From Promethearchaeota archaeon (GTDB taxonomy: Archaea; Asgardarchaeota; Lokiarchaeia; Sigyniarchaeales; SOKP01): 47,774 nucleotides of DNA. The stretch spans positions 1,106,091-1,153,864 of the forward strand of contig CP070831.1 in the NCBI GenBank assembly GCA_020344955.1. Reading direction: 5' to 3'. Both the position numbers and the translations under genes were made by a program. A model generated the notes under the pieces. It searched no databases. It had not been told where the DNA came from and saw only the letters and a list, made by a program, of their open reading frames with translations. Shown here piece by piece: positions 288 to 47,238 of the stretch. Every line of letters begins with the position of its first letter. The first letter of the stretch is position 1.

Positions 288-1169
288 ATGAAACCCTTAA
301 TTTTCATTGTAGAGGACGATAAAAAGATTTTATATAATATGAAATTAATGATGGAATACAATGGTTATAACACATTAACAGCGAAGAATGGTGTTGAAGC
401 TCTTGAAATAATCTCAACATGCGAAAATTATCCAGATATTATTTTGTGCGACATTGTAATGCCAAAAATGAATGGATACGACTTCTTTAAAGATATTTCG
501 AAAAACGAAGAACTTAATAATATACCCTTTATTTTTATATCTGCTCGTAGTGCCCCCGAGGATGTACGCTTTGGAAAAATGTTAGGGGCAGATGATTATA
601 TCACTAAACCATTTGAGGAAGAAGATCTGCTTGCTATAGTTAAGGGTAAATTAGCTCGTTATAGAAAAATCGATCTAATCAATGAGCAAATTGAACAATA
701 CATATTAAAAACAGGAATAGACAAAACACTCGTCCCAGTTGATGAGAAATTGAATCCCTTTACATTTATATGTGTATGGTGGGACGATATCATGGGACCG
801 GTTATCAAGTCTTATTATTCAGAACATAATAATTTATCATCATCCTTAAATACAATAGGACAACAATTATTTCAATCAATTGTGGCCATTACTGGAAAAA
901 ATGAGCTTAAAGAACCAGCAGGTTTACTTTTAAATATTGAAAATATAAAGAGACAAGGTTATGTTTTTTTTGATTCTTTCAAAGATGAAAATTTACGAGG
1001 TAATGAACAACAATTCATGTTAGCTGTAATTGCAAAAAGAGTCAATTATTTTGAATCTTTAAAAATCAAAGAAATATTCCTTGAGATGTCTCATAAAATT
1101 AAAGAAGAAAAAAAATGTGATATAGGAACCTATTCAAATGATCTTAGTAAAATTCTAGCACAAATCTAA
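288..1169 (+). CDS. response regulator: CheY-like receiver plus an uncharacterised ~170-aa alpha/beta C-terminal domain
   Basis: Receiver signature residues are present (IVEDD, LCDIVMP, FISAR, ITKPF). The C-terminal half has no HTH pattern; it shows alternating hydrophobic strand/helix segments (FICVWWDD, GPVIKSYY, LFQSIVAI, GLLLNIEN, YVFFDSF, FMLAVIAK). Confidence 0.8.
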   Translation: MKPLIFIVEDDKKILYNMKLMMEYNGYNTLTAKNGVEALEIISTCENYPDIILCDIVMPKMNGYDFFKDISKNEELNNIPFIFISARSAPEDVRFGKMLGADDYITKPFEEEDLLAIVKGKLARYRKIDLINEQIEQYILKTGIDKTLVPVDEKLNPFTFICVWWDDIMGPVIKSYYSEHNNLSSSLNTIGQQLFQSIVAITGKNELKEPAGLLLNIENIKRQGYVFFDSFKDENLRGNEQQFMLAVIAKRVNYFESLKIKEIFLEMSHKIKEEKKCDIGTYSNDLSKILAQI

Positions 1170-28214: not shown

Positions 28215-28315
28215 CGCAACGGGAGGGATTTGAACCCCCGAGTGCATTCACACACCGGCTTTTTGGGATACACTCCGCTCCAAGCCGGCGCCGTACCGGG
28301 CTAGGCAACCGTTGC
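28215..28315 (-). tRNA. tRNA-Ser(GGA) with a 17-nt canonical 37/38 BHB intron (28261..28277); no encoded CCA
   Basis: Acceptor GCAACGG/CCGUUGC, T-arm GGGGG-UUCAAAU-CCCUC, a long variable arm, anticodon stem CCGGC/GCCGG and loop UUGGAG..A. The intron 3' end CCAA pairs with UUGG (nt 32-35), flanked by two 3-nt bulges. Confidence 0.85.
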
Positions 28316-29765: not shown

Positions 29766-30389
29766 TTAAGTTTTCAGATTTAATTTATTTTGAAATTCTC
29801 TAAATATTTCATACAATTTATCTATCAATTTATCCTTTAGTTTTGCGTCAGACATTATCAGATCAAGCTGATTGATAGAATTTTTTTGCAATTCTTTAAC
29901 CTTAAATAAAACTTCATTTAATCCTGGAAACTTACTTAAATTATGATTTAGTTCATCAAACAAATTAAAAATTATATCCTTTTTTCCTAAACCATCCAAA
30001 GTTAACGCATCCATAAGTGTTATAAAAGACGTGGTTATTTCAGATGTAATAGCTGGTAATTCTAAAAATGTACGCTTATGTGTGATTGTTTCATTATCAG
30101 GGAAATGTAGTGAAGACAAACGATTTATCATATTTAGAACTGAGTTATATTCTTGGGCTATATCCATTTTTTTAATTAGATCCGACATTTGAAGATTTCT
30201 TTCTTTTAGAGAGAGATTTATCTTTAATAGGTTATTCATAGCAGTTTTTATTGTTTTTCTAAAGAAATTTTCATTAACAATACCTTTTTGATATTTAGTG
30301 TTTAAATTAGTAATTGATTTAACTAATGCAAATATCTCAGACTCTATTTTTGATTCAAATTCAGAATTAATTCTGTTGTTTTCTGTCAT
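29766..30389 (-). CDS. Vps28-like protein (ESCRT-I subunit homolog)
   Basis: The N-terminal half SEIFALVKSITNLNTKYQKGIVNENFF resembles [27 protein letters not shown] of human VPS28 as I recall it. The C-terminal four-helix part SFITLMDALTLDG..D.I..LFDEL resembles LFITVMDKLRLEIRAMDEIQPDLREL. Length is 207 aa. Confidence 0.6.
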   Translation of the reverse strand: MTENNRINSEFESKIESEIFALVKSITNLNTKYQKGIVNENFFRKTIKTAMNNLLKINLSLKERNLQMSDLIKKMDIAQEYNSVLNMINRLSSLHFPDNETITHKRTFLELPAITSEITTSFITLMDALTLDGLGKKDIIFNLFDELNHNLSKFPGLNEVLFKVKELQKNSINQLDLIMSDAKLKDKLIDKLYEIFREFQNKLNLKT

Positions 30390-31518: not shown

Positions 31519-32580
31519 TTATTGAAATTCTATTGTAGAATATTTATTTTCATTTTTAATTTGATAATTTCGATTTAAAAATAATTTAATCAATTCCAAA
31601 TTTGTATTGGTGTGACTTGTAACCTCAAGCACCTTTATTTTTGATGGTTCTTGAATGAAAGCCATAAGTGGAATTAGTTGGTCACTTAAATAATTGTCTA
31701 CTGGAATTTCATTTTTGATATATTCTATAAGTTTATCAGCAGCAATATTTCCAAGTTCTTCTGAAGTAATATTTTTTTCCCCAAGAATCGTTCCAGAAGA
31801 AATAATGGCACCATTATCTGAAATCGCCCATAAAGAAAGCCCAACTCCAGGACTTAGAGAATTTACATATTTAAGACTAAGTTTAACGTTTAATCCCAGT
31901 TTTTTTTTTAATTTCAGTTGAGCAGATTTTTCTATTCTTTCACATACATTCCTCGATCTTAAATGACTTGTACTGATTATTTCACCTTGAATTAACTCTA
32001 TATTACCCAATTTAGTTAAATTAATAGGTTTAATTTTATTTCTTGGAGGAAATAAAGTACATTTTACCATCGCTCCTCCTTTAGGATAAAAACCATGTTT
32101 TAGAATATCAATATCGATTTTAAAACCATGTTTCTTAAAAATATTATATGTTACTTGTTGAAGATAATTTAGGCTTGGCGCCCATTTTCCAAATGTACCC
32201 CCTCCAATAACCATGATTTCAATCTTTTCTTGTGAATTAAATCCTAAACAGGCAATTTGAATAGGTTGTAGAAGTAGACCTATACTCCCTGCTGTTCCAA
32301 TCTCAACTTCAATTTTATTTTTTATTGAATTCTTTGGACATAAAGTTATTTCGGTTGTCCCAATTTTACATTCAGACAATTTACTGCTGGTTAATTCTGC
32401 TAAAGTTTTTAACCCCATTAAGTGCTGTAATCTTAAACCAGGTTTAGCTCTATTTGCTCTTATATTCTTTAATCGAATTGAACGTTGGAATAACACCGAA
32501 AAACCAGCTGCAATACGAAGTATCGCACCCCCACCTTCCCCAAAAGAACCATCAATTTCTAGGAAATCCTCAGTTGTCAT
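31519..32580 (-). CDS. rtcA: RNA 3'-terminal phosphate cyclase
   Basis: IDGSFGEGGGAILRIA, RAKPGLRLQHL, YLSDQLIPLMAF and the C-terminal histidine motif TSHTNTNLELIKLF. Confidence 0.85.
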   Translation of the reverse strand: MTTEDFLEIDGSFGEGGGAILRIAAGFSVLFQRSIRLKNIRANRAKPGLRLQHLMGLKTLAELTSSKLSECKIGTTEITLCPKNSIKNKIEVEIGTAGSIGLLLQPIQIACLGFNSQEKIEIMVIGGGTFGKWAPSLNYLQQVTYNIFKKHGFKIDIDILKHGFYPKGGAMVKCTLFPPRNKIKPINLTKLGNIELIQGEIISTSHLRSRNVCERIEKSAQLKLKKKLGLNVKLSLKYVNSLSPGVGLSLWAISDNGAIISSGTILGEKNITSEELGNIAADKLIEYIKNEIPVDNYLSDQLIPLMAFIQEPSKIKVLEVTSHTNTNLELIKLFLNRNYQIKNENKYSTIEFQ

Positions 32581-34665: not shown

Positions 34666-35565
34666 CTATTTTTTATATTTTTGATCTACTTCATGGAAAT
34701 TTCTTAATGCTTCAGATTTTAGTCTATATTCTTCTTCTTTATCAAATTCTACTAATTTTTTTGAAATTTCACTCGCTTTTCTAAATGAAATATAAGCTGT
34801 ATGAAAATCTTCATTTTTTAAAGCATTTCGTGCTTCTTCTATTATTTTTTCCCTTTCTTTTGATAATTCAGGAGTTTGCTGGTAAAATTCACCTTTGTCT
34901 GTTAATGAAGCAGCAATATCCATAATATAAAGATTTTCTGCTAATTCCCCTGCTTTTAAATAAAACTTTGCAGCTTTTGAATAATCTAAAGATTTTACCG
35001 CATTCTCAGCTGCTTCATAAAATTCAGAAATTTTAAGATGTTCACCATTTTCAATTTTTTCTAAGAGATCTTGAGCTATTTTCCTTTCTTTTTTTCCACC
35101 ACTTAACATAAATTTCGTTATGTTTATAATGCTTTTTTTCAACGCATCAGGTTGAAGAATATCAATTAATGGTTCAAGATGCTCAAGATAAATATCTTTT
35201 AAGATTATTTCAAACTCTTCTTTAGATTTGTTAAGAATATTTAAACTAGGCATTTCAAGAGCTTCAGCAGCTTCTTTAAGGGATGAACGAAATTTTTCTA
35301 TTTCATCATCTTCGTCTAGTAGCAACCCAATAATAGTACCCGAAGCTTTTCTAGCTATTTTTCCTTTAAATTTATAAAGATAAGAAAAAATTTTGTGAGT
35401 CTTAATTTTCAATAGATTATACTCATTTTTTGAATGATCAAGATTTAACCTAAGAAATAAATCATTTGATATTTCAAAATCGGGTTTACTTTCTTTAAAA
35501 TAATAACCCAAAATCTTATAATCAGAATCAGTTGGAAGTAAAATCACAAAACAACCTAGCGGCAT
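34666..35565 (-). CDS. hypothetical protein: N-terminal longin/roadblock-like alpha/beta module plus C-terminal helical (TPR/MIT-like) repeats
   Basis: Pattern only: beta-beta-alpha-beta-beta-beta-alpha periodicity in residues 1-105, then helical hairpins with AAKFYLKAGELAEN and FHTAYISFRKASEISKKL. Confidence 0.35.
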   Translation of the reverse strand: MPLGCFVILLPTDSDYKILGYYFKESKPDFEISNDLFLRLNLDHSKNEYNLLKIKTHKIFSYLYKFKGKIARKASGTIIGLLLDEDDEIEKFRSSLKEAAEALEMPSLNILNKSKEEFEIILKDIYLEHLEPLIDILQPDALKKSIINITKFMLSGGKKERKIAQDLLEKIENGEHLKISEFYEAAENAVKSLDYSKAAKFYLKAGELAENLYIMDIAASLTDKGEFYQQTPELSKEREKIIEEARNALKNEDFHTAYISFRKASEISKKLVEFDKEEEYRLKSEALRNFHEVDQKYKK

Positions 35566-35629
35566 TAGAAATCTTACACTTTTTAATAATTATTATTAGA
35601 TTATGATTAAGCATAAAAAAATAAAAGAT

Positions 35630-36052
35630 TTATGATTGAGTGGCGCTAATTATTCTATTGGTTTCTTCACGAATAGACTGAATAATATTTAATAATTGAG
35701 CAAAATATAGATTATCTGTTACTGCTTGTGAAGCTTGTTTTATGACCTCAATCGCTTTCTTCTCTTCTTCTGTTATTGCTTCAATAGACTTTTTATCCCA
35801 GAGCTCTTTTATTTTGAGATTAAAATCGTCTGATAGATCCTGAAGACTTTTTGTTGATTGAACTCTGAACTGTTTTAAGACTTCTACGATCAATCTAATA
35901 TTTTCTGTCATAGCGACTGTTTGTTCAGAGAAACTTTGACTCATTTGATTAATTGCTCCTCTCATTTGATTAATTTGAGCGATTGTTCCATCCAACGAAC
36001 TCATAATTTGATTTATTTTTTGAATCATTTGATCAAGTAGCTGTTCTGCCAT
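35630..36052 (-). CDS. coiled-coil protein, unknown function (paralog-like partner B)
   Basis: 140 aa, Q/N/I-rich heptad repeats, no TM segment. It starts directly after the stop of the upstream gene. Confidence 0.45.
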   Translation of the reverse strand: MAEQLLDQMIQKINQIMSSLDGTIAQINQMRGAINQMSQSFSEQTVAMTENIRLIVEVLKQFRVQSTKSLQDLSDDFNLKIKELWDKKSIEAITEEEKKAIEVIKQASQAVTDNLYFAQLLNIIQSIREETNRIISATQS

Positions 36053-36466
36053 TTATTCTACCACCTCCTCTTCCTTTACAGATTCTTTAAGAATCTTAAC
36101 TGAATCAATGGCTTCAGATAATAATAAGTTTACTGTGTCTTGATTGAGAACTCCTTCGGAGAGTTTAGCAAAATCTTCCAATTTTTTAATCAAATTTTTA
36201 AGAGCTTCCAAACCTAAGCCTTCCTGAATTACTTTCAATTCTTCTGTAGTTCCCTCCCCAATTTCCTTTACAGTATCAATATGTTTGGTTTGGGTAACAT
36301 CAATCTCATTCGAAAATTCTTCCAGTTTCGCAGTTAAATTTGATATCTTCTCTTCTATATTTTTATTTAAATCATCTAGAGAAGATTTCAGCCCTTGAAT
36401 AGCTGATCCGAGTTGGCTAATTCTTTTATAGATATTTTGAAGGAGGTCTGTTAACATTTCTGCCAT
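36053..36466 (-). CDS. coiled-coil protein, unknown function (partner A)
   Basis: 137 aa, heptad repeats, acidic C-terminus. It abuts the next gene with no spacer. Confidence 0.45.
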   Translation of the reverse strand: MAEMLTDLLQNIYKRISQLGSAIQGLKSSLDDLNKNIEEKISNLTAKLEEFSNEIDVTQTKHIDTVKEIGEGTTEELKVIQEGLGLEALKNLIKKLEDFAKLSEGVLNQDTVNLLLSEAIDSVKILKESVKEEEVVE

Positions 36467-36617
36467 TGATCATCAACTTCTTCTTTAATTCTTTGTTTTT
36501 GACAAAAATCTCTTTTTTTCACTTTAATTATAAATATAACAGATTACACCAATAAAAAAATTTTTATCTTTTTTCTGATTTAATTAGTTTATAATATTAA
36601 TACTTATCAGTCGAATT

Positions 36618-36792
36618 GGGCCATTTGCTTAGCTTGGTTAACAAGGTTTAGGTGCTTGGTCAACAAGCGCAGGTCTTATAAATGACCATCAGACATACAA
36701 TAAATAGAACTGTCTGAAAAAGTAAAAACCTGAGTAAACATTGTATCTCTCAATGTTTAAGGAAATCCGGGGTTCAAATCCCCGATGGCCCA
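36618..36792 (+). tRNA. tRNA-Ile(UAU) gene, 175 nt, with three insertions (D-loop ~22 nt, anticodon loop ~46 nt, variable region ~30 nt)
   Basis: Acceptor GGGCCAU/AUGGCCC plus discriminator A. T-arm CGGGG-UUCAAAU-CCCCG. Anticodon stem CAGGU(36670-36674)/ACCUG(36728-36732) with loop CUUAUAA (anticodon 36677-36679). D-stem GCUU(36627-36630)/AAGC(36665-36668). Confidence 0.7.
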
Positions 36793-36924
36793 TTTTAATT
36801 TAATTATAATTGAAAGTCTTTTGATTCTTGATTTGAAATTCGTGAAACATCTATTTTACGTTTTTTCATATATCTCTAACGAATATGTCTAGATATATTG
36901 AGATAATACATTAAAAATAAGTAA

Positions 36925-37605
36925 TTATTTATCTAAATTCGAACTGATCAAATCAAGAAGCCATTTTTTAATTTGAGTAAGATTTTTAAGGATCCCAGGT
37001 ACAAGATTTTCCGGAAAATTATGTTCTTGTTCTAACCTTTGAGCTGTCTCCATCCATTTATTTAGAGCTAATTGGACTAGACTTGCACCTTCTGCTTCCA
37101 TAAATATAGGAACAACAGCAGCAGATTCTCTCGCATCTCCAATAGCAAAGTAAATTCTTCGATTCATACCTTTTAACATTACTAAATTAGCACATTCATC
37201 AAGTTTTCTTTCTACTAAAATGCTTTTCAAGATCTGGCTTTTCATATCATCATCCATTTTTGCAAAAGCATCTTTTCTCTTTTTTAATAGAGGCTGAATT
37301 TCAGACACAACTTTATCACCAGTAGTTCCCTCGGTAAAATATTTAGTAATTTTTAAAGAATTATCTAAAGCTTCAATAGCAGTAAATTTTTTACTATTTG
37401 AATAAAAAACTGCCTTAGAACCACCTTGATCTTCACTTGTTGATTGCTTTATATAAATATTTCTCATTGATACTGAATTACATGTATGATAAGCTAATTC
37501 AAATAATTCTCGAGGGATTAAAGGAGTATATGATTCTTCAATTTGTTTAGAAAGCCATTGTGAAGTAATAACATTATTAAATTGGTCTAAAAGTCGGTTT
37601 TCCAT
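36925..37605 (-). CDS. hypothetical protein downstream of SepSecS
   Basis: 226-aa ORF, no recognisable motif, same strand and 120 nt downstream of the SepSecS gene. Confidence 0.4.
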   Translation of the reverse strand: MENRLLDQFNNVITSQWLSKQIEESYTPLIPRELFELAYHTCNSVSMRNIYIKQSTSEDQGGSKAVFYSNSKKFTAIEALDNSLKITKYFTEGTTGDKVVSEIQPLLKKRKDAFAKMDDDMKSQILKSILVERKLDECANLVMLKGMNRRIYFAIGDARESAAVVPIFMEAEGASLVQLALNKWMETAQRLEQEHNFPENLVPGILKNLTQIKKWLLDLISSNLDK

Positions 37606-37725
37606 TAAAAATCCCTTACTGACGATTTTGAATCGTTCAAATAATTTTTATTAAAATATAGAACTTCTAGTTTTTATTTATTTTTATTTCTGTTCAAATA
37701 GAATAATGAAATATTTGAAAAACTA

Positions 37726-39093
37726 TTAAGTACGAATTATTTGATTGTATGCTTTTTCAAATCTCTCAACAGCAGAAGTGATATCTTTTTCTGTCGCTCC
37801 AATTGCGGCATTCATTACAATATATGGTGTTGGATAATTGCTACAACATGTTCCAAACGCTTTATCTTTTGGATTATATACTCGTGGTCCAGTTACTCGT
37901 AAATTATATAATGCTCCTCCAAGCGCATACAAATGTTCTTTTTTCATATTCTTTAAAGATAAAGCCACAGCAACTGGATTATATATCTCTAAAACTCTTT
38001 CATTTAATTTTTCAGCAATTTTTCTGAGTTTTGTTTCAAGAATTTTCCGATTTTTTTGTTGTTCTTCAATTAATTTTTGATAACCATTAATGCCCATAGA
38101 TAACATTGAAATTAAGAAATTTACAACGGGGGTTGCTGAAGCCCGACCTGCATATGCTTGGCTGATTTTAGTTATATTTTCTTTCAATGGTGAGGCAATT
38201 ACAGCACCACCGACTGGTGTAAGGAAATTTTTATCTGTAGATTGAATAATTGCATCCACCCTTCCTGCATCAATTGCAGATCTGATTAATTTCATCCATT
38301 CTGGGCTTTGAATGCCATATGCATTTATAACAATATGAATAAGATCGTTTTCTTTTGCAAATTTACTTATTTCTTTGATATCATCATGTTCTCTGGGGGG
38401 AAAAAAACTCGTAACTGAGATGATGGCAAAACAATCATTATCCAAATTTTTTTTAATATCCTCAACTGGAATTCTTACTGCATCCCCAAAAATCTGTCCT
38501 GAGACAATTTTTGCATTAAAACCCATTAGATCAATTGATTTTAAAAGGGATTTATGATCTATTTGAGGAATTAAAACAGTCCGTTTATAATTCAAATTAG
38601 TTTCACTTTGCACTTGTTTTAAAGCTCCTAAACTCAAGGATAAGGACATTCCTGTACATAATGGTACTACAATTGCATCCGTTATATTGGGTAGGCCTGT
38701 ATTCCTCAAGATGTTTCGAGCTAAATAGTTAGTAATTTCATACATTATTGAACCTCCAGGTGCTTTTGGTTGGGGAGCTGTTAAAAAACCACTTCTTCCA
38801 ACACCATGACAAAATCCAGCAGAAGTTTTTAAATGGAGTCTTGAAGCTACTCTTGCCTCTCTCTCACCTACTCTCGCAGCATTATTATCTTTATCTGTAT
38901 CCATATTAGAAAGGGTTTGAAGTAGAAACTCTATTTGCTCATCAGTCCAAGGTTCACTAGGTACAGATCTTTGTTCGAATAGAATTTTCATGGGTTTTAA
39001 GAACTCAGTTAAAACAAGTTGGCCTCTATTTAACATATTTTCAGGAATATTCGAACTTTCGAAAAATTCAATAATTTTATTAAAATCAACCAT
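37726..39093 (-). CDS. spcS: O-phosphoseryl-tRNA(Sec) selenium transferase (SepSecS)
   Basis: PLP-enzyme pattern with QSTDKNFLTPVGGAVIAS (Lys of DKNF) and GRSGFLTAPQPKAPGGS. The start is moved to ATG 39091-39093 because the track's first 33 codons overlap the tRNA-Sec gene. Confidence 0.8.
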   Translation of the reverse strand: MVDFNKIIEFFESSNIPENMLNRGQLVLTEFLKPMKILFEQRSVPSEPWTDEQIEFLLQTLSNMDTDKDNNAARVGEREARVASRLHLKTSAGFCHGVGRSGFLTAPQPKAPGGSIMYEITNYLARNILRNTGLPNITDAIVVPLCTGMSLSLSLGALKQVQSETNLNYKRTVLIPQIDHKSLLKSIDLMGFNAKIVSGQIFGDAVRIPVEDIKKNLDNDCFAIISVTSFFPPREHDDIKEISKFAKENDLIHIVINAYGIQSPEWMKLIRSAIDAGRVDAIIQSTDKNFLTPVGGAVIASPLKENITKISQAYAGRASATPVVNFLISMLSMGINGYQKLIEEQQKNRKILETKLRKIAEKLNERVLEIYNPVAVALSLKNMKKEHLYALGGALYNLRVTGPRVYNPKDKAFGTCCSNYPTPYIVMNAAIGATEKDITSAVERFEKAYNQIIRT

Positions 39094-39116
39094 AAAGATC
39101 ACTATAAGTTTTAAAT

Positions 39117-39241
39117 TGGCGGCTCTCGAGGGGAATCGAACCCCTACCCCTCCGCAGGATAACTGGGTTTGAAGCCCAGCGTCAGAGACCACTTTGGTTA
39201 TCTCACTCTCTAATGTTGTGAGATTCTAACCGTCAAGAGCC
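39117..39241 (-). tRNA. selC: tRNA-Sec(UCA) with encoded CCA and a 32-nt BHB intron in the D-arm
   Basis: 13-bp acceptor/T stack (GGCUCUUGA / UCGAGAGCC; GGGG-UUCGAUU-CCCC). 6-bp anticodon stem GCUGGG/CCCAGU with loop CUUCAAA (UCA = 39170-39172). Long variable arm. After intron removal the D-arm is a 7-bp GUUAGAG/CUCUGAC stem with a UGGU loop. Confidence 0.85.
39194..39225 (-). other. BHB intron within the D-stem of tRNA-Sec
   Basis: Central helix GGUU(39231-39228)/AACC(39199-39196). 3-nt bulges AGA(39227-39225) and AAA(39195-39193). Inner 7-bp helix AUCUCAC/GUGAGAU with an 11-nt loop. The outer helix has only 2 bp (C39232-G39192, A39233-U39191). Confidence 0.7.
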
Positions 39242-39351
39242 TTCATTTTAAGCCTTTAAAATCAACTTAAGCGTCAATTCAAATTATTTATCTTTTTAAA
39301 ATAAGTTTTTGGTTATAAATAAGGGTATAATTATTTGATTAAGAAAATGAA

Positions 39352-40566
39352 TTAAAAAAGATCTGAAACATTTTTACCTTCTTCAAAAATACTACTAACT
39401 TTCTCCATAATCTCAGGGATATTTATATATTGAGGGCACTTTTCAAGGCATTCACCACATTGTATGCATAAACTTGCGGCTCCATCTACCTCTTCTCCTT
39501 CAGAAAGTCTTTGCTCTAAATCTTCTTGTGTTTTGGCCATCCTATCATAAAAAGATAATAGTCTATCTTTACGTGCTTCGCCCCAATATCCTAGTTCATT
39601 TAATAATCTAAAAACCCATGGAATAGAGACACCATTTGGACATGGTAGACAATACCTACAATCAGTACAAGGTACAAGGTCATAAGTTTTATATGCTTCA
39701 CGTAATTTAGAAATAATCTTTAAATCATCTTTAGTTAAATTATTAGCTTTCGAATTATTTGCTGATTCTATATTTTCTTTAACTTGCTGCATTGTACTCA
39801 TTCCACTTAATACGACTGATACTTGAGGATGATCCCAAACAAATTGTAAAGCCCAATCAGCCATAGTTCTTTCAATTTTTGATTTATTAAGAATTTCCTT
39901 AAACTCAAGTTTTTCATCAAGTTTTTTCTCGGGAATAGCTAATTTTCCACCGCGTATTGGTTCCATAATTATTAATGCAATATTCTTACTTCCCGCATAT
40001 TTTAGTCCTTTTGTACCTGCTTGATATTCTACATCAAGATAATTAAATTGGATTTGACAACAGTCCCAATTATAGTAATCAATTATCTCTTTAAACACCT
40101 CATAAGTATCATGAAATGAGAATCCTATATATGTAAACAATCCTTTAGATTTTGCTTGTTCCATTTTCTCAATCAAGTTAAACTTTTTGATTTTCTCTAA
40201 TCTATCTTTGTTTAGTCCATGAAATAAATATAGATCAGGATTAGTTTGTAATCTTTCAATCTGTTCTTTAAGGAATTTATCAAAATCATCCCTTTTCTTC
40301 ACTAACCACATTGGTAATTTTGTTGCTAGATGAACTTTTTCTCTGTAGCCATCTTTTAGCGCCTTTCCTAATAGAATTTCACTTTCTCCATTATGATAAG
40401 GATAAGCTGTATCTATGTAATTTACTCCATTATCTATTGCATATCTAATCATTTCTATCGCTATTTTTTCATTGATCTTTGAGTTTTGATCTACAGGTAA
40501 TCGCATAGCGCCAAACCCAAGAGCAGACACCTCCCAATTAAGAGATCCCATTTTTCGATACTTCAA
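39352..40566 (-). CDS. aldo/keto reductase fused to a C-terminal 4Fe-4S ferredoxin-like domain
   Basis: AKR N-terminus MKYRKMGSLNWEVSALGFGAMRLP and DTAYPYHNGESE. C-terminal cysteine clusters CTDCRYCLPCP and CIQCGECLEKCP. Confidence 0.75.
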   Translation of the reverse strand: MKYRKMGSLNWEVSALGFGAMRLPVDQNSKINEKIAIEMIRYAIDNGVNYIDTAYPYHNGESEILLGKALKDGYREKVHLATKLPMWLVKKRDDFDKFLKEQIERLQTNPDLYLFHGLNKDRLEKIKKFNLIEKMEQAKSKGLFTYIGFSFHDTYEVFKEIIDYYNWDCCQIQFNYLDVEYQAGTKGLKYAGSKNIALIIMEPIRGGKLAIPEKKLDEKLEFKEILNKSKIERTMADWALQFVWDHPQVSVVLSGMSTMQQVKENIESANNSKANNLTKDDLKIISKLREAYKTYDLVPCTDCRYCLPCPNGVSIPWVFRLLNELGYWGEARKDRLLSFYDRMAKTQEDLEQRLSEGEEVDGAASLCIQCGECLEKCPQYINIPEIMEKVSSIFEEGKNVSDLF

Positions 40567-40830
40567 TTTATCTTCTCTTTTCTTTTTTTTTAATTAAAAA
40601 GTTAAAGTGTGAATAATAAATGAATTTTATTATTAATAGTTATAAAAACATATTTTTATCCTATTTTAGGAGTAAATCTATTGAGTTGATATTATAAATA
40701 TTAATAAGCCATCTTCTTTAAGTAAAAGTAATTTAAAGGATGAATTACTAAATTTGTACTGTTTTTTTTTTTATAAAGACATAGTTGTTATTGATTTTCA
40801 AGGAAAACGAAAAACTTAAGTGAAAATGAT

Positions 40831-40983
40831 ATGATGAGTAAAATAGAATTAAAAATTGATTTTCAAATAGTTGAATGCCCTTTTATAGAATCTTGTATGC
40901 TTCCGAAAATACGGTTTTTATGTAAAATTCCAAATTGTAAAAATTGCCCAGATTATATCTCTAAATTAGTTAAAATTAGATAA
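40831..40983 (+). CDS. possible 50-aa cysteine-rich small protein
   Basis: ATG 40831 to TAA 40981-40983 reads MMSKIELKIDFQIVECPFIESCMLPKIRFLCKIPNCKNCPDYISKLVKIR. Below the ORF-track cutoff, no homology recognised. Confidence 0.2.
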   Translation: MMSKIELKIDFQIVECPFIESCMLPKIRFLCKIPNCKNCPDYISKLVKIR

Positions 40984-40992
40984 AAAAGTAAA

Positions 40993-41673
40993 TTATTTTA
41001 TTATCTTATTTTCAATATCACTACAATTTATCCTTCTGCAGCCTGGTGTTTTTAATGGAATATTATAAACCCTTTCAATAAAATTAACAATTATATGACT
41101 AGTTGCTCCAAAAATAACATATCTTTTACCATTTTGAGGTGATTTGTAATTATATTTCCCAACACTAATAGTATCGCCTTTAAGCATGTACGTTCTCTCT
41201 TTATAATTCTGTTTTTTTACAAAAAATGTAATAGGTATTTCTAATATCTCTTTTACTTCTGCATCTTGTTTTATCATTTTTTGATCCTGACTTATAAAAG
41301 CAACAAATGGTGTTATTATAAATCCTTTTGGTGTTAAGTGATCATCAATGCATCCTAAAATGTTTTCATTAGAAAGTTCTATCCCTAATTCTTCCTTTAA
41401 TTCTCTTTTCGCTGTATCTAAATAACTTGAATCAAGGGTAGAATCATATTTACCTCCCGGGAAAGAAATTTCCCCGGAATGCTTATCATTTTCTCTTTTC
41501 GTACGACGTATTAAAATTAATTCATATGATTTAATTTTATATGGAATTAAAAGAAAAAAAACTGCAGATTTTACAAAATTTTCATGTTCCATAGAAATTC
41601 TATATGGAGAATTAAAATCCATTAGTTTGCTTTCTATTAACTCTCTACTGAAAATAAAATTTGTAAATTTCAT
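40993..41673 (-). CDS. Nudix hydrolase, CoA pyrophosphatase-like, copy 2
   Basis: LILIRRTKRENDKHSGEISFPGGK plus Nudix box AKRELKEELGI. Confidence 0.7.
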   Translation of the reverse strand: MKFTNFIFSRELIESKLMDFNSPYRISMEHENFVKSAVFFLLIPYKIKSYELILIRRTKRENDKHSGEISFPGGKYDSTLDSSYLDTAKRELKEELGIELSNENILGCIDDHLTPKGFIITPFVAFISQDQKMIKQDAEVKEILEIPITFFVKKQNYKERTYMLKGDTISVGKYNYKSPQNGKRYVIFGATSHIIVNFIERVYNIPLKTPGCRRINCSDIENKIIK

Positions 41674-41684
41674 TATTTGGATTT

Positions 41685-42407
41685 CTAAAATTTTCTAGTG
41701 ATTTGATTTCTATATTTAACATATTCTTTCATTTGTTTGATTTTTTCAAGTTTAAAGCGTTTTAATCCCAATTGAGACATGTTAAGTTCATAAACTTTTT
41801 CTATAAAACTGATTATCATATAAGCTGTTGCTCCCCAGATGCTATATTCTTGTCCATTAGTTTTATCAATGTAATTGAAATAGAAAACAGGGAATTTTTT
41901 TTCTTCAATGTCAATAGCTTGTTCTTTAAAATTTTTTCTGCTAGTAAAAAATTCGATGGATACTTTAAGAATTCTTTGAACTTCTCTCTCATCTTTTACT
42001 AGAACTTGATTTTTATCTATTATTCCTAAGAAGGGGGTAATTATATACTGAGTCATCGTAGGAAAATCATCTAAACATCCAAATATTTTAATTTTTTCAC
42101 GAGGTACACCAATTTCTTCTTGTGTTTCTCGTAAAGCCGTATCTTCAAGAGAATTATCGAATCGGGAATCAAATTTTCCTCCGGGGAAAGATATTTCACC
42201 CCTATGTCTTAAACCTTTTTCTGAGCGATGAATTAGTATTAATTCATATGGTTTATTAACATATGGAATAATTGAAAAAAGAACTGCAGCACTAGTAAAA
42301 AATTTATCTTTTATGGAAATTCTTAAAGGTGAATCGCAGGGTAACAATTTTTTTTTTATGAAATTTTCATTGAAAATTAAATCTAAGGTATCCATGAGTT
42401 TTAGCAA
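41685..42407 (-). CDS. Nudix hydrolase, CoA pyrophosphatase-like, copy 1
   Basis: LILIHRSEKGLRHRGEISFPGGK plus Nudix box ALRETQEEIGV. Colinear with the downstream paralog. Confidence 0.7.
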   Translation of the reverse strand: MLKLMDTLDLIFNENFIKKKLLPCDSPLRISIKDKFFTSAAVLFSIIPYVNKPYELILIHRSEKGLRHRGEISFPGGKFDSRFDNSLEDTALRETQEEIGVPREKIKIFGCLDDFPTMTQYIITPFLGIIDKNQVLVKDEREVQRILKVSIEFFTSRKNFKEQAIDIEEKKFPVFYFNYIDKTNGQEYSIWGATAYMIISFIEKVYELNMSQLGLKRFKLEKIKQMKEYVKYRNQITRKF

Positions 42408-45344: not shown

Positions 45345-46763
45345 ATGGAAATTGAAAAGAAAATCCCCATACACATTGGGTTATTCGGACATATCGACTC
45401 TGGGAAGACAGCAATAGCAGAAGTCCTTAGCGAAATAATTTCTACGGCAGGAATTGATGCCCATCCGCAAAGTAAGGAACGAGGAATAACTATAGATTTA
45501 GGTTTTACCAGTTTTATTCTTGATAAATATTTAATTACTTTGGTAGATGGCCCGGGTCATGCTGATTTAATTAAAATAAGTGCGTCATCAGTAGAAATTA
45601 TCGATTGTGCTTTAATAGTCATAGATATTAATAAGGGGCCCCAAGTTCAAACAGGAGAACATCTTATTATGATTGAGTCCCTTAATATTCATAATATTAT
45701 TATAATTCTCAATAAAATTGATATCTTTTTTGGAAGTATTGAGAATGAGATACAGAAAACAAGAGAATTTTTCAATTCAACATCCTTTGGACAGAATGTA
45801 CCGATTTTTACTGTTAGTGCGAAAAAGAAAATTGGTTTCGAAAAATTAAAAAACGGAATATTAGAAACAGTAAAATCTTTAAAAATAGAAAGAAGTACTA
45901 AAGGAGATATTATAATTCCTATCGATCACCATTTCTCAATAAAAGGTGTAGGAGTTATATTAACAGGTACAATTTTAAATGGAACATTAAATACAAATCA
46001 AATTTTAGAAATCTTACCTGTTAAAACATCCGGTAGAGTTAAGGGCATTCAAATATTTCACCAAAATGTCGATTTTGCTAAAGCAGGAGATAGAGTTGGC
46101 ATTAATATCAAAGGTGTAGAATTAAAAAAAATTTTTCGAGGTTGTTATGCAACCAATAACCCAAAAGCCTTTGAATTTTGTGATATAATCGAAGTAAAGG
46201 TAACCATTAATAAATTATTTAAACCAAAAACTAGTTTTGGTACTCAAATTCATATTACCATTGGAATGTTCACTACTACTGGAAGGATTTATCCTTACTA
46301 TGATCTGGATGAAAAAAGAATTCAAACAACAGTTTCAAATAAAGATCAAGGATTTAAGGCTATTATTTTTTTCAAGGAGAAAGTTTTAATTAGAAAAAAG
46401 AATAATATGATGTTATTAAGCCGATTAGATTTAACTCCAACTAGTTTAAGAATTTTAGGCTCAGCAGAGTTATTAAAAATATGGCAAGAATCTCCTTTGT
46501 TTTATAAACATAAAACAAAAAAGGGAACCATCAAAAATCCAGATCACCCTCAAGGAATTGTATGTACAGGTTTAGTAAAAAGTGTTAATGGTGCTAAAAA
46601 GATTGTTGGAAAAAAGTTAGAACCTCCATTCACAAGTGTTTTAGATACATTTGGTACTAAAGGAGCTGTAATTATTGGGATTGAAAATAAGGAAAAAATG
46701 ATTGAAAAAGGAGATCCCGTTTTTCTAAAAGAATTAAGAAGCTTTTATGTAAAAAACATTTAA
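45345..46763 (+). CDS. selB: selenocysteine-specific translation elongation factor, archaeal/eukaryal type
   Basis: GTPase motifs GHIDSGKT, DGPGH and NKID. EF-Tu-like domains II/III plus a short C-terminal extension, 472 aa. Sits in the same neighbourhood as tRNA-Sec and SepSecS. Confidence 0.75.
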   Translation: MEIEKKIPIHIGLFGHIDSGKTAIAEVLSEIISTAGIDAHPQSKERGITIDLGFTSFILDKYLITLVDGPGHADLIKISASSVEIIDCALIVIDINKGPQVQTGEHLIMIESLNIHNIIIILNKIDIFFGSIENEIQKTREFFNSTSFGQNVPIFTVSAKKKIGFEKLKNGILETVKSLKIERSTKGDIIIPIDHHFSIKGVGVILTGTILNGTLNTNQILEILPVKTSGRVKGIQIFHQNVDFAKAGDRVGINIKGVELKKIFRGCYATNNPKAFEFCDIIEVKVTINKLFKPKTSFGTQIHITIGMFTTTGRIYPYYDLDEKRIQTTVSNKDQGFKAIIFFKEKVLIRKKNNMMLLSRLDLTPTSLRILGSAELLKIWQESPLFYKHKTKKGTIKNPDHPQGIVCTGLVKSVNGAKKIVGKKLEPPFTSVLDTFGTKGAVIIGIENKEKMIEKGDPVFLKELRSFYVKNI

Positions 46764-46794: not shown

Positions 46795-47238
46795 GTGTTA
46801 AAATTGGAAAAAGCGAAAGATACTGAAATTGAAATTAGTCAGGAGATCTTAGATGAATTAATGCGTAATTTAGAAAAATTAGAAGCATCTACTGACCTAG
46901 AAGGAACTGCTGTAGTTTCAAAAACGGGATTAAGGATTGCGAGTTCTGAAACTGCTGATGTTGTGTGGGATATTTATAGTGCTAGCCCCGCAACATTAAT
47001 TTCATTAGGTGAAAAAATTAGCCAAGGATTAGAGCAAGGTGAATTAAGAGATATTGTTATTCGAGGAACTAAAGGATATACAATTATTTTAGTCGGATCT
47101 GCTGATAATAATTTCATGTTATTTACAAATTGTAAAAAAGGTTATAAATTAGGATATTATTTCCATAAAATTAGGAAAGCCTTCAAAGAAATGGAACCTG
47201 TTTTAAAAAAAATTGAAACTAAAGATATAAAATATTAA
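46795..47238 (+). CDS. Roadblock/LC7 (MglB-like) domain protein (GTG start)
   Basis: LEGTAVVSKTGLRIASSE ... IVIRGTKGYTIILVG ... FMLFTNC matches the alpha-beta-alpha Roadblock pattern. Confidence 0.55.
   Translation: MLKLEKAKDTEIEISQEILDELMRNLEKLEASTDLEGTAVVSKTGLRIASSETADVVWDIYSASPATLISLGEKISQGLEQGELRDIVIRGTKGYTIILVGSADNNFMLFTNCKKGYKLGYYFHKIRKAFKEMEPVLKKIETKDIKY

Follow-up and report, generated by a model that had tools for sequence, protein, structure and literature searches.

A 47,774-nt stretch of contig CP070831.1 from a Promethearchaeota archaeon (assembly GCA_020344955.1), referred to here as the window, contains a gene for the selenocysteine tRNA (tRNA-Sec) that lies directly upstream of the gene for O-phosphoseryl-tRNA(Sec) selenium transferase (SepSecS). 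Judged from its sequence and from related genes, it is very probably a genuine tRNA-Sec gene of a Lokiarchaeia-type Asgard archaeon, split in the D-stem by a 32-nt intron of the archaeal endonuclease type with a relaxed bulge-helix-bulge (BHB) motif. The intron would lie between nt 5 and 6 of the 5' strand of the D-stem (mature nt 16/17). Such a D-stem intron is not peculiar to this genome but common among its relatives.

Read on the minus strand from 39241 to 39117, the gene starts with GGCUCUUGA-CG-GUUAG, is interrupted by the intron AAUCUCACAACAUUAGAGAGUGAGAUAACCAA and continues with AG-UGGU-CUCUGAC-GCUGGG-CUUCAAA-CCCAGU, a 17-nt variable arm and finally GGGG-UUCGAUU-CCCC-UCGAGAGCC-G-CCA (Table 1). 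A preliminary description of the window, made from the sequence alone, had reported a 125-nt gene with an encoded CCA and a 32-nt insert (39194..39225) in the 5' strand of the D-stem; direct reading and a script gave the same gene coordinates, and the insert was confirmed by reading and by intron-less orthologues. The elements assigned there to the insert, a GGUU/AACC central helix, the bulges AGA and AAA and a 7-bp inner helix AUCUCAC/GUGAGAU, are all correctly placed. Cuts after the second bulge nucleotide had been predicted to give GUUAGAG-UGGU-CUCUGAC, a D-arm with 7 bp and a 4-nt loop, and ARAGORN arrives at the same arm with the excised sequence. The anticodon UCA sits in a 7-nt loop on a 6-bp stem, as in archaeal tRNA-Sec (RF01852), the 17-nt variable arm is long and has a stem of 5-6 bp, and a G (G73) precedes the CCA. 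The 7-bp D-stem and the 4-nt D-loop appear only once 39225..39194 is excised. The T-arm (GGGG-UUCGAUU-CCCC) is continuous, that is, it lacks the published T-loop intron of ~31 nt.

In this split form the gene escapes the usual search programs. On the window as it is, ARAGORN found no gene and Rfam at gathering thresholds gave no match; a permissive Rfam search returned a partial match to RF01852 with 35.2 bits (threshold 47) at 39202..39128, which covers only the 3' portion of the unspliced gene. After deletion of 39225..39194 in silico, ARAGORN called a tRNA-SeC(tca) of 93 nt with a 9-bp acceptor stem, a 4-bp T stem, a 7-bp D stem, a 4-nt D loop, a long variable arm, a G discriminator and CCA, and RNAfold gave the same cloverleaf for the spliced sequence (−44.5 kcal/mol). 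Three intron-less orthologues, which differ from the spliced sequence of the window at no fewer than 4 positions, exceed the gathering score of RF01852 with 62-63 bits; intron-containing orthologues, including one whose tRNA gene is identical to that of the window (locus L029, see below), were missed at the Rfam threshold. With a low threshold, ARAGORN reported for the unspliced gene a tRNA-Pro(ggg) with a 29-nt "intron", a tRNA-Met and a tRNA-Pro with a 1335-nt "intron", all of which were judged to be artefacts. Since default tRNA finders and Rfam thresholds are blind to an intron-split tRNA-Sec, surveys that trace the selenocysteine trait in Asgard archaea by way of this tRNA can under-call it; alternatively, they may label such genes as tRNAs with "unusual insertions". 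The comparison of 77 genes described below supplies exact splice junctions and a simple locator, the sequence just upstream of SepSecS.

A look at the tRNA-Sec genes of other Asgard genomes had been proposed in the preliminary description, and this comparison confirmed the mature sequence independently. An alignment of SepSecS led to 80 loci (designated by L numbers) from species-representative Asgard genomes, in which scripts sought tRNA-Sec upstream of SepSecS. L010, L024 and L080, which are cut by contig ends, and L049, which has no upstream sequence, were left out, so that 76 complete genes, or 77 with the window, were compared. Thirty-five of the 76 relatives are intron-less. Several of these genes (e.g. 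L028, L030) read GGCCCTTGACGGTTAGAGTGGTCTCTGAC in their 5' half, which equals exon 1 plus exon 2 of the window except for a C4>U change in the window gene; its 3' acceptor strand makes up for this with a G>A change (pair 4:86, U-A in place of C-G). As the intron-less orthologues match the predicted junction, the mature sequence of the window's tRNA-Sec is fixed. The U-A allele at 4:86 is found together with the identical site of a 32-nt insert in three further species (L001, L027 and L029), and the tRNA gene of L029 is identical to that of the window.

D-stem introns, 29-34 nt in length, are present in 35 of the 77 genes, mostly alongside a T-loop intron: 28 genes have both and seven the D-stem intron only (the window, L001, L027, L029, L017, L078 and L045). 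A single gene (L011) is of the published type with a T-loop intron only, six genes of one clade combine an anticodon-loop with a T-loop intron, and 35 have none; a T-loop intron is thus found in 35 relatives. In the register from which a 93-nt tRNA results, each of the 35 D-stem introns shows a fully paired central helix of 4 bp between two 3-nt bulges. The register is after mature nt 17 in 31 genes, with the 5' bulges GA↓A, GA↓U or AA↓U and the 3' bulge AA↓G (arrows, predicted cuts), and after nt 16 in four (the window, L029, L027 and L001), in which GGUU faces AACC, or AACU in L027. The majority register was also tried for the window intron and rejected: the central helix would then be GUUA/ACCA, which is unpaired, whereas 4/4 pairs form in the nt-16 register. 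For the mature sequence of the window both registers are equivalent because the intron and exon 2 each start with A. Exon and intron covary at exon nt 14, with GUCG/CGAU in 30 genes and GUUG/CAAU in L045, and the inner hairpin is preserved in L027 by a double change from C-G to U-A and in L001 by a re-registered helix with a bulge. The sequence of the insert is free to evolve, in contrast to the exons, which are 96% conserved. In L017, L055 and L058 a segment of the intron resembles the acceptor strand.

In a rough neighbour-joining tree of SepSecS the intron configurations are interleaved, with L008 (D-stem and T-loop) as sister to L011 (T-loop only) and L006 (none) as sister to L017 (D-stem), which points to frequent gain or loss of introns. 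The clade without a D-stem intron (L065, L067, L068, L072, L073 and L079; ~190-40 nt upstream of SepSecS) has an anticodon-loop intron of ~27 nt in addition to the T-loop intron, and adding this site to those in the D-stem and the T-loop gives at least three intron sites in the tRNA-Sec of these archaea. With introns at up to three sites of one small essential gene, patchily distributed among close relatives and, in the D-stem, in two registers, tRNA-Sec is a compact natural system for the gain, loss and sliding of BHB introns in the archaeal lineage closest to eukaryotes. In L062 a partial duplicate of the 5' half of tRNA-Sec (GGCCCTTGATGGTCC..., ~987..1112) lies 33 nt upstream of a functional-looking gene, which has one mismatch in the acceptor stem; the duplicate could have been left behind by a rearrangement or when an intron was gained or lost.

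Whether the tRNA folds in the 9/4 or the 8/5 form had been regarded as ambiguous in the preliminary description, and covariation across the relatives decides for 9/4. In a set of 40 distinct tRNA-Sec sequences spliced in silico, 99.6% of the cells of the 9/4 cloverleaf are paired (99.3% for the D-stem pairs) and 11 pairs change on both sides, compared to 2.8 ± 1.2 in shuffles; slid controls came nowhere near. The ninth acceptor pair, 9:81, is AU in 35 sequences, GC in 3, GU in 1 and UA in 1, and is unpaired in none (n = 40). The 8/5 alternative requires a fifth T pair, 65:81, with the invariant A65, and this pair is broken in 4/40 sequences. By this covariation, the fold class is 9/4, with a 13-bp acceptor/T domain.

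GGUU/AACC with AG↓A and AA↓A is the single best BHB solution at the insert and has the 3-4-3 geometry, and excision restores what reads as a functional RNA: the spliced product folds as a cloverleaf and matches the intron-less orthologues. The motif had been called a well-formed BHB, which holds for the central helix, the bulges and the inner helix, but is overstated since an outer helix is effectively absent. For lack of a real outer helix the motif is relaxed (HBh'/BHL-like) and not of the strict hBHBh' type. Relaxed motifs are cleaved only by EndA of the (αβ)2 or ε2 type with a specificity loop, and this loop (L1) is conserved in EndA of Asgard archaea (Kaneta et al. 2018, PMC5829648), which have 1-2 endA genes per metagenome-assembled genome (Sun et al. 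2021, supplement, PMC9723677). A C/D-box guide RNA or a self-splicing element in the intron is ruled out by the size of 32 nt and the lack of box motifs.

Several points weigh against splicing of the D-stem intron as proposed here. The outer helix has at most 2 bp (C10-G50, A9-U51) with a pair probability of 0.001, and A9 is also required by the ninth acceptor pair, so that the two compete. At minimum free energy (−49.9 kcal/mol; z = −3.1 versus shuffles), the 125-nt precursor retains a D stem of 6 bp with the intron hairpin stacked on it and leaves the central helix unformed; the forced BHB conformer (−48.4 kcal/mol) lies 1.5 kcal/mol above this fold. In the free ensemble the four central pairs have probabilities of ~0.29 and those of the inner helix 0.76-0.99. 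Furthermore, the endonuclease gene of this genome lies outside the window, and splicing, ligation and the structure of the transcript are all inferred from sequence. If the fold of minimum free energy is taken at face value, the 32 nt could simply be retained, giving a mature tRNA-Sec with an enlarged D-arm and an extra hairpin; in line with this, Asgard tRNAsec of 86-142 nt have been described as having "unusual insertions", which were not termed introns (Sun et al. 2021, PMC9723677). Yet such a retention is hardly credible in view of the mature sequence of the intron-less orthologues, the adherence of 35/35 inserts to the 3-4-3 rule in the tRNA-restoring register and the free evolution of the insert between conserved exons; moreover, a hairpin in the D-stem would destroy the 7-bp/4-nt D-arm that defines archaeal tRNA-Sec. 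It is also most improbable that the gene is a decaying or silent copy and that another, intron-less tRNA-Sec elsewhere in the 3.3-Mb genome works instead. The search for further copies covered 47.8 kb, and the unspliced gene of the window stays below the Rfam threshold, which speaks for this idea; but there is no second tRNA-Sec in the window, the slot upstream of SepSecS holds tRNA-Sec in 77/77 loci, the exons are intact, the compensated change in the acceptor stem is common to four species, and the genes for the elongation factor EFsec, SepSecS and the putative selenocysteine-system protein Sel_Asgard are all close by.

For a spliced D-stem intron, the following route can be envisaged. In the splicing-competent conformer, exon nucleotides G11-U14 would pair with AACC of the intron, the splice sites would lie in the flanking 3-nt bulges and the intron hairpin would form the inner helix. 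A broad-specificity EndA of the Asgard type would cut after G39226 and after A39194, and a ligase of the RtcB type would then join the exons. This would leave a 93-nt tRNA-Sec of the 9/4 class whose D-arm consists of 7 bp and a 4-nt loop, with a long variable arm, G73 and the CCA already in place. Two other tRNAs of the window, a tRNA-Ser whose intron is canonical and a candidate tRNA-Ile with three introns, suggest that splicing of introns is routine in this genome.

The tRNA-Sec gene heads a conserved same-strand array of tRNA-Sec, SepSecS and Sel_Asgard. The preliminary description had placed the ATG of SepSecS (39093) 23 nt past the CCA on the same strand; this proved right, and the match to TIGR03531 supports the identity of the gene, whose product is 100% identical to an NCBI Promethearchaeota protein. 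A longer, GTG-initiated open reading frame from 39192, which would overlap the tRNA, is unsupported: all homologues start with MVDF at ATG 39093. In 77/77 assessable loci tRNA-Sec is located upstream of SepSecS on the same strand, and 18-33 nt separate the CCA from the start codon in 51 genes, compared with 130-1090 nt between the two genes in some genomes. A GUG(A/U)- or GGAG-like motif is present 4-15 nt before the start in 38 of the 51 short-spacer genes; in the window it is the Shine-Dalgarno-like GUGAUC, which is complementary to the 3' end of archaeal 16S rRNA. Whereas the spacers diverge freely, the acceptor stem is followed by G-CCA in each of the 77 complete genes. This invariant encoded CCA differs from the statement in a review that archaeal tRNA-Sec genes do not encode CCA (PMC9499178).

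In 35 of 68 loci a conserved A/T box, AAAYTTCWTTTWA, precedes the tRNA at a distance of 38-84 nt; the background frequency is 0.14 per kb. Since the window combines the same strand, a short spacer without a run of five T residues (T5) and a putative promoter box upstream, it looks like a pylTS-type unit, and tRNA-Sec and SepSecS plausibly form one transcription unit in it. With its invariant CCA, the array of tRNA-Sec, SepSecS and Sel_Asgard is a candidate for a system in which the expression of a tRNA is coupled to that of the enzyme modifying its cargo. In L028, L030, L031, L037, L039-L043 and L045 an aldo-keto-reductase/4Fe-4S gene ends directly upstream of tRNA-Sec (8 nt in L030, where it was measured) and leaves no room for the A/T box. 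The tRNA is perhaps transcribed together with the upstream gene there, or from inside it.

For the window we lean slightly towards transcription from the upstream A/T box with read-through into SepSecS, in which case 3' processing of the tRNA would make the 5' end of the mRNA. Separate transcription of the two genes, with a promoter for SepSecS in the A/T-rich spacer or in the 3' end of the tRNA plus spacer and a leaderless or short-leader mRNA, is nonetheless a serious possibility, and several findings count in its favour and against a common transcript. In many relatives with 33-nt spacers, the TATA-like sequence TTATATCA or ATTTATTA follows right after the CCA, ~26-33 nt before the start codon, and might act as the promoter of a leaderless SepSecS mRNA; 15 of the 51 short spacers include a T5 run at which the tRNA transcript could end; and the wide distances between the genes in some genomes imply that SepSecS can be expressed alone. 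In the window, however, the sole TATA-like element, AUUUAAAA, has its centre ~19-20 nt ahead of the ATG, too short a distance for an archaeal promoter to start transcription at this codon or before it. A 5' leader is also implied by the Shine-Dalgarno-like GUGAUC, which lies 5-10 nt ahead of the ATG, and the spacer has no T5 run. A point against the proposed reading of the locus as a whole is a sharp mosaic over 42100..34724, whose breakpoint (~39100..39050) is at the tRNA/SepSecS junction. From 42100 to the 3' end of tRNA-Sec the window is 96-99% identical to L029 (JBHLOG010000069) and ~77% to L001 (JBHLNL010000023), but below ~39050 it is 75-84% identical to L029 and 86-95% to L001. Such a switch of identity would result if the assembly had merged two related populations at the conserved tRNA, which would make the junction a chimera. 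We consider this rather unlikely; natural homologous recombination at a conserved tRNA would leave the same pattern, and since tRNA and SepSecS are neighbours in both putative parents, with 23 and 22 nt between them, even a chimera would leave the biological conclusion unchanged.

A bolder assumption would be that a single tRNA-Sec/SepSecS precursor is made across the Lokiarchaeia-type Asgard archaea and that tRNA processing is a checkpoint which couples the supply of the mature tRNA to both release and translation of SepSecS mRNA. Processing would consist of excising the D-stem, T-loop or anticodon-loop introns and of 3' cleavage beside the unusually conserved encoded CCA. We regard this as improbable; if it were true, gain, loss and the 1-nt shift of the D-stem intron would be tuning and not neutral turnover.

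The intron resembles other relaxed (HBh'/hBH/BHL) BHB introns (Kaneta et al. 2018, PMC5829648) in its 4-bp central helix, its 3-nt bulges, the predicted cut behind the second nucleotide of each bulge and a flank that is weak or missing. Marck and Grosjean are said to have described such introns at non-canonical positions of archaeal pre-tRNAs in 2003, and introns in the D-arm are already known from canonical tRNAs, e.g. in the D-loop of pre-tRNA-Glu of M. kandleri. Different from these are the host, which is tRNA-Sec, the central helix, which consists of the nucleotide preceding the D-stem and three D-stem nucleotides, and the occurrence of two registers 1 nt apart (after nt 16 or nt 17) among close relatives. 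In tRNA-Sec, a 31-nt intron in the T-loop was described for Lokiarchaeum (Mariotti et al. 2016, PMC4989117; Santesmasses et al. 2017, PMC5330540), and a review in 2022 still called this the sole intron-containing tRNA-Sec of archaea (PMC9499178). The window gene is similar to it in the UCA anticodon, G73, the 9/4 fold, the 7-bp D-stem, the 4-nt D-loop, the size of the intron and its non-canonical site, and as in Lokiarchaeum the EFsec gene is ~6 kb away on the opposite strand (PMC4989117). In contrast to the published Lokiarchaeota case, the T-loop is uninterrupted and the intron is in the D-stem; and whereas SecS was on a different contig in the study of Mariotti et al. (PMC4989117), SepSecS follows 23 nt downstream in the window. 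In Atabeyarchaeia and Freyarchaeia 92-95% of the tRNAs have introns, many of them non-canonical and multiple, and the SeC tRNAs tabulated in the supplement, 175 nt and 122 nt long, apparently have three introns and one intron (Valentin-Alvarado et al. 2024, PMC11291895); that set comes from other Asgard classes and gives neither positions or structures of the SeC introns nor a tRNA-Sec/SepSecS tandem. A survey of Asgard selenoproteomes from 2024 mentions neither introns nor the pairing of the tRNA with SepSecS. In the freely readable full-text literature, subscription-only papers aside, we came across no paper that explicitly describes a tRNA-Sec with a D-stem intron or the tRNA-Sec/SepSecS tandem.

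The arrangement is reminiscent of pylT-pylS (pylTSBCD), where a recoding tRNA is encoded directly upstream of its own enzyme on the same strand (PMC9499178). It differs in that another amino acid system is concerned, SepSecS converts the charged tRNA and does not aminoacylate it, and co-transcription is something we only infer here. Both the D-stem intron and the gene pairing fit known Asgard biology, with its intron-rich tRNAs and broad-specificity endonuclease, and are a modest extension of it. They do not overturn current understanding; their value is mostly in annotation and in the comparison of intron turnover, and co-transcription is the part most worth an experiment.

Table 1. Features of the tRNA-Sec locus and of its surroundings in the window.
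Feature	Position	Strand	Remarks
tRNA-Sec gene (pre-tRNA, encoded CCA included)	39117..39241	−	125 nt; ends GCC-G-CCA; called by ARAGORN after excision; partial RF01852 match
Exon 1	39226..39241	−	9-nt 5' acceptor strand, CG, nt 1-5 of D-stem 5' strand (GUUAG)
Predicted intron	39194..39225	−	32 nt; no counterpart in 35 orthologous genes
Exon 2	39117..39193	−	Remainder of D-arm, anticodon arm, 17-nt variable arm, T-arm, 3' acceptor strand, G73, CCA
BHB central helix, 5' strand GGUU (exon)	39228..39231	−	4/4 pairs with 39196..39199
BHB central helix, 3' strand AACC (intron)	39196..39199	−	AACC also in L001 and L029; AACU (G-U wobble) in L027
5' bulge AG↓A	39225..39227	−	Predicted splice site between 39226 and 39225; junction backed by intron-less orthologues
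3' bulge/junction AA↓A	39193..39195	−	Predicted splice site between 39194 and 39193
Intron hairpin, 7-bp inner helix AUCUCAC/GUGAGAU	39200..39224	−	Strands 39224..39218 and 39206..39200; 11-nt loop
Anticodon UCA	39170..39172	−	Loop CUUCAAA at 39174..39168
Genome-encoded CCA	39117..39119	−	3' end of tRNA-Sec
Spacer tRNA-Sec to SepSecS	39094..39116	−	23 nt; Shine-Dalgarno-like GUGAUC at 39102..39097; no T5 run
SepSecS (O-phosphoseryl-tRNA(Sec) selenium transferase)	37726..39093	−	455 aa; TIGR03531, 482.6 bits (cut-off 224.85)
Promoter-like A/T box AAACUUAUUUUAAAAAG	39292..39308	−	51-67 nt upstream of the tRNA; one-mismatch variant; putative function
Sel_Asgard, putative selenocysteine-system protein	36925..37605	−	NF045535, 227.8 bits (cut-off 132); next gene downstream of SepSecS
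Aldo-keto reductase fused to 4Fe-4S domain	39352..40566	−	Gene upstream of tRNA-Sec
Archaeal EFsec/aSelB	45345..46763	+	GTP_EFTU, GTP_EFTU_D2, aSelB_III (PF21440); 6.1 kb upstream of the tRNA, opposite strand
tRNA-Ser(GGA)	28215..28315	−	17-nt canonical anticodon-loop intron; no CCA, then TTTTTC
Candidate tRNA-Ile(UAU)	36618..36792	+	Just downstream of Sel_Asgard, opposite strand; ~98 nt extra sequence; no CCA
RNA 3'-terminal phosphate cyclase RtcA	31519..32580	−	Pfam RTC and RTC_insert; ~5 kb downstream of the Sec array
VPS28-like ESCRT-I protein	29766..30389	−	Eukaryote-signature type
Roadblock/LC7 protein	46795..47238	+	Eukaryote-signature type

Sel_Asgard has no Pfam domain, and its position right after SepSecS is kept in the relatives examined. 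RtcA makes the 2',3'-cyclic phosphate ends that are used by tRNA ligases of the RtcB type; its closeness to the Sec array may be coincidental. The VPS28-like and the Roadblock/LC7 proteins are consistent with the Asgard origin of the window.

The preliminary description had also stated that the two other tRNAs of the window lack an encoded CCA; both were located, and neither encodes it. The tRNA-Ser(GGA) reaches 39.5 bits with the Rfam tRNA model, yet was missed in the gathering-mode run. The candidate tRNA-Ile(UAU) was called by ARAGORN after three putative inserts, in the D-arm, the anticodon loop and the variable region, had been removed by hand. On the opposite strand, L073 and L079 have the same T-arm and 3' acceptor strand, GGTTCGAATCCCCGATGGCCC; the T-arm also has a similar counterpart in L033, L034 and L053.

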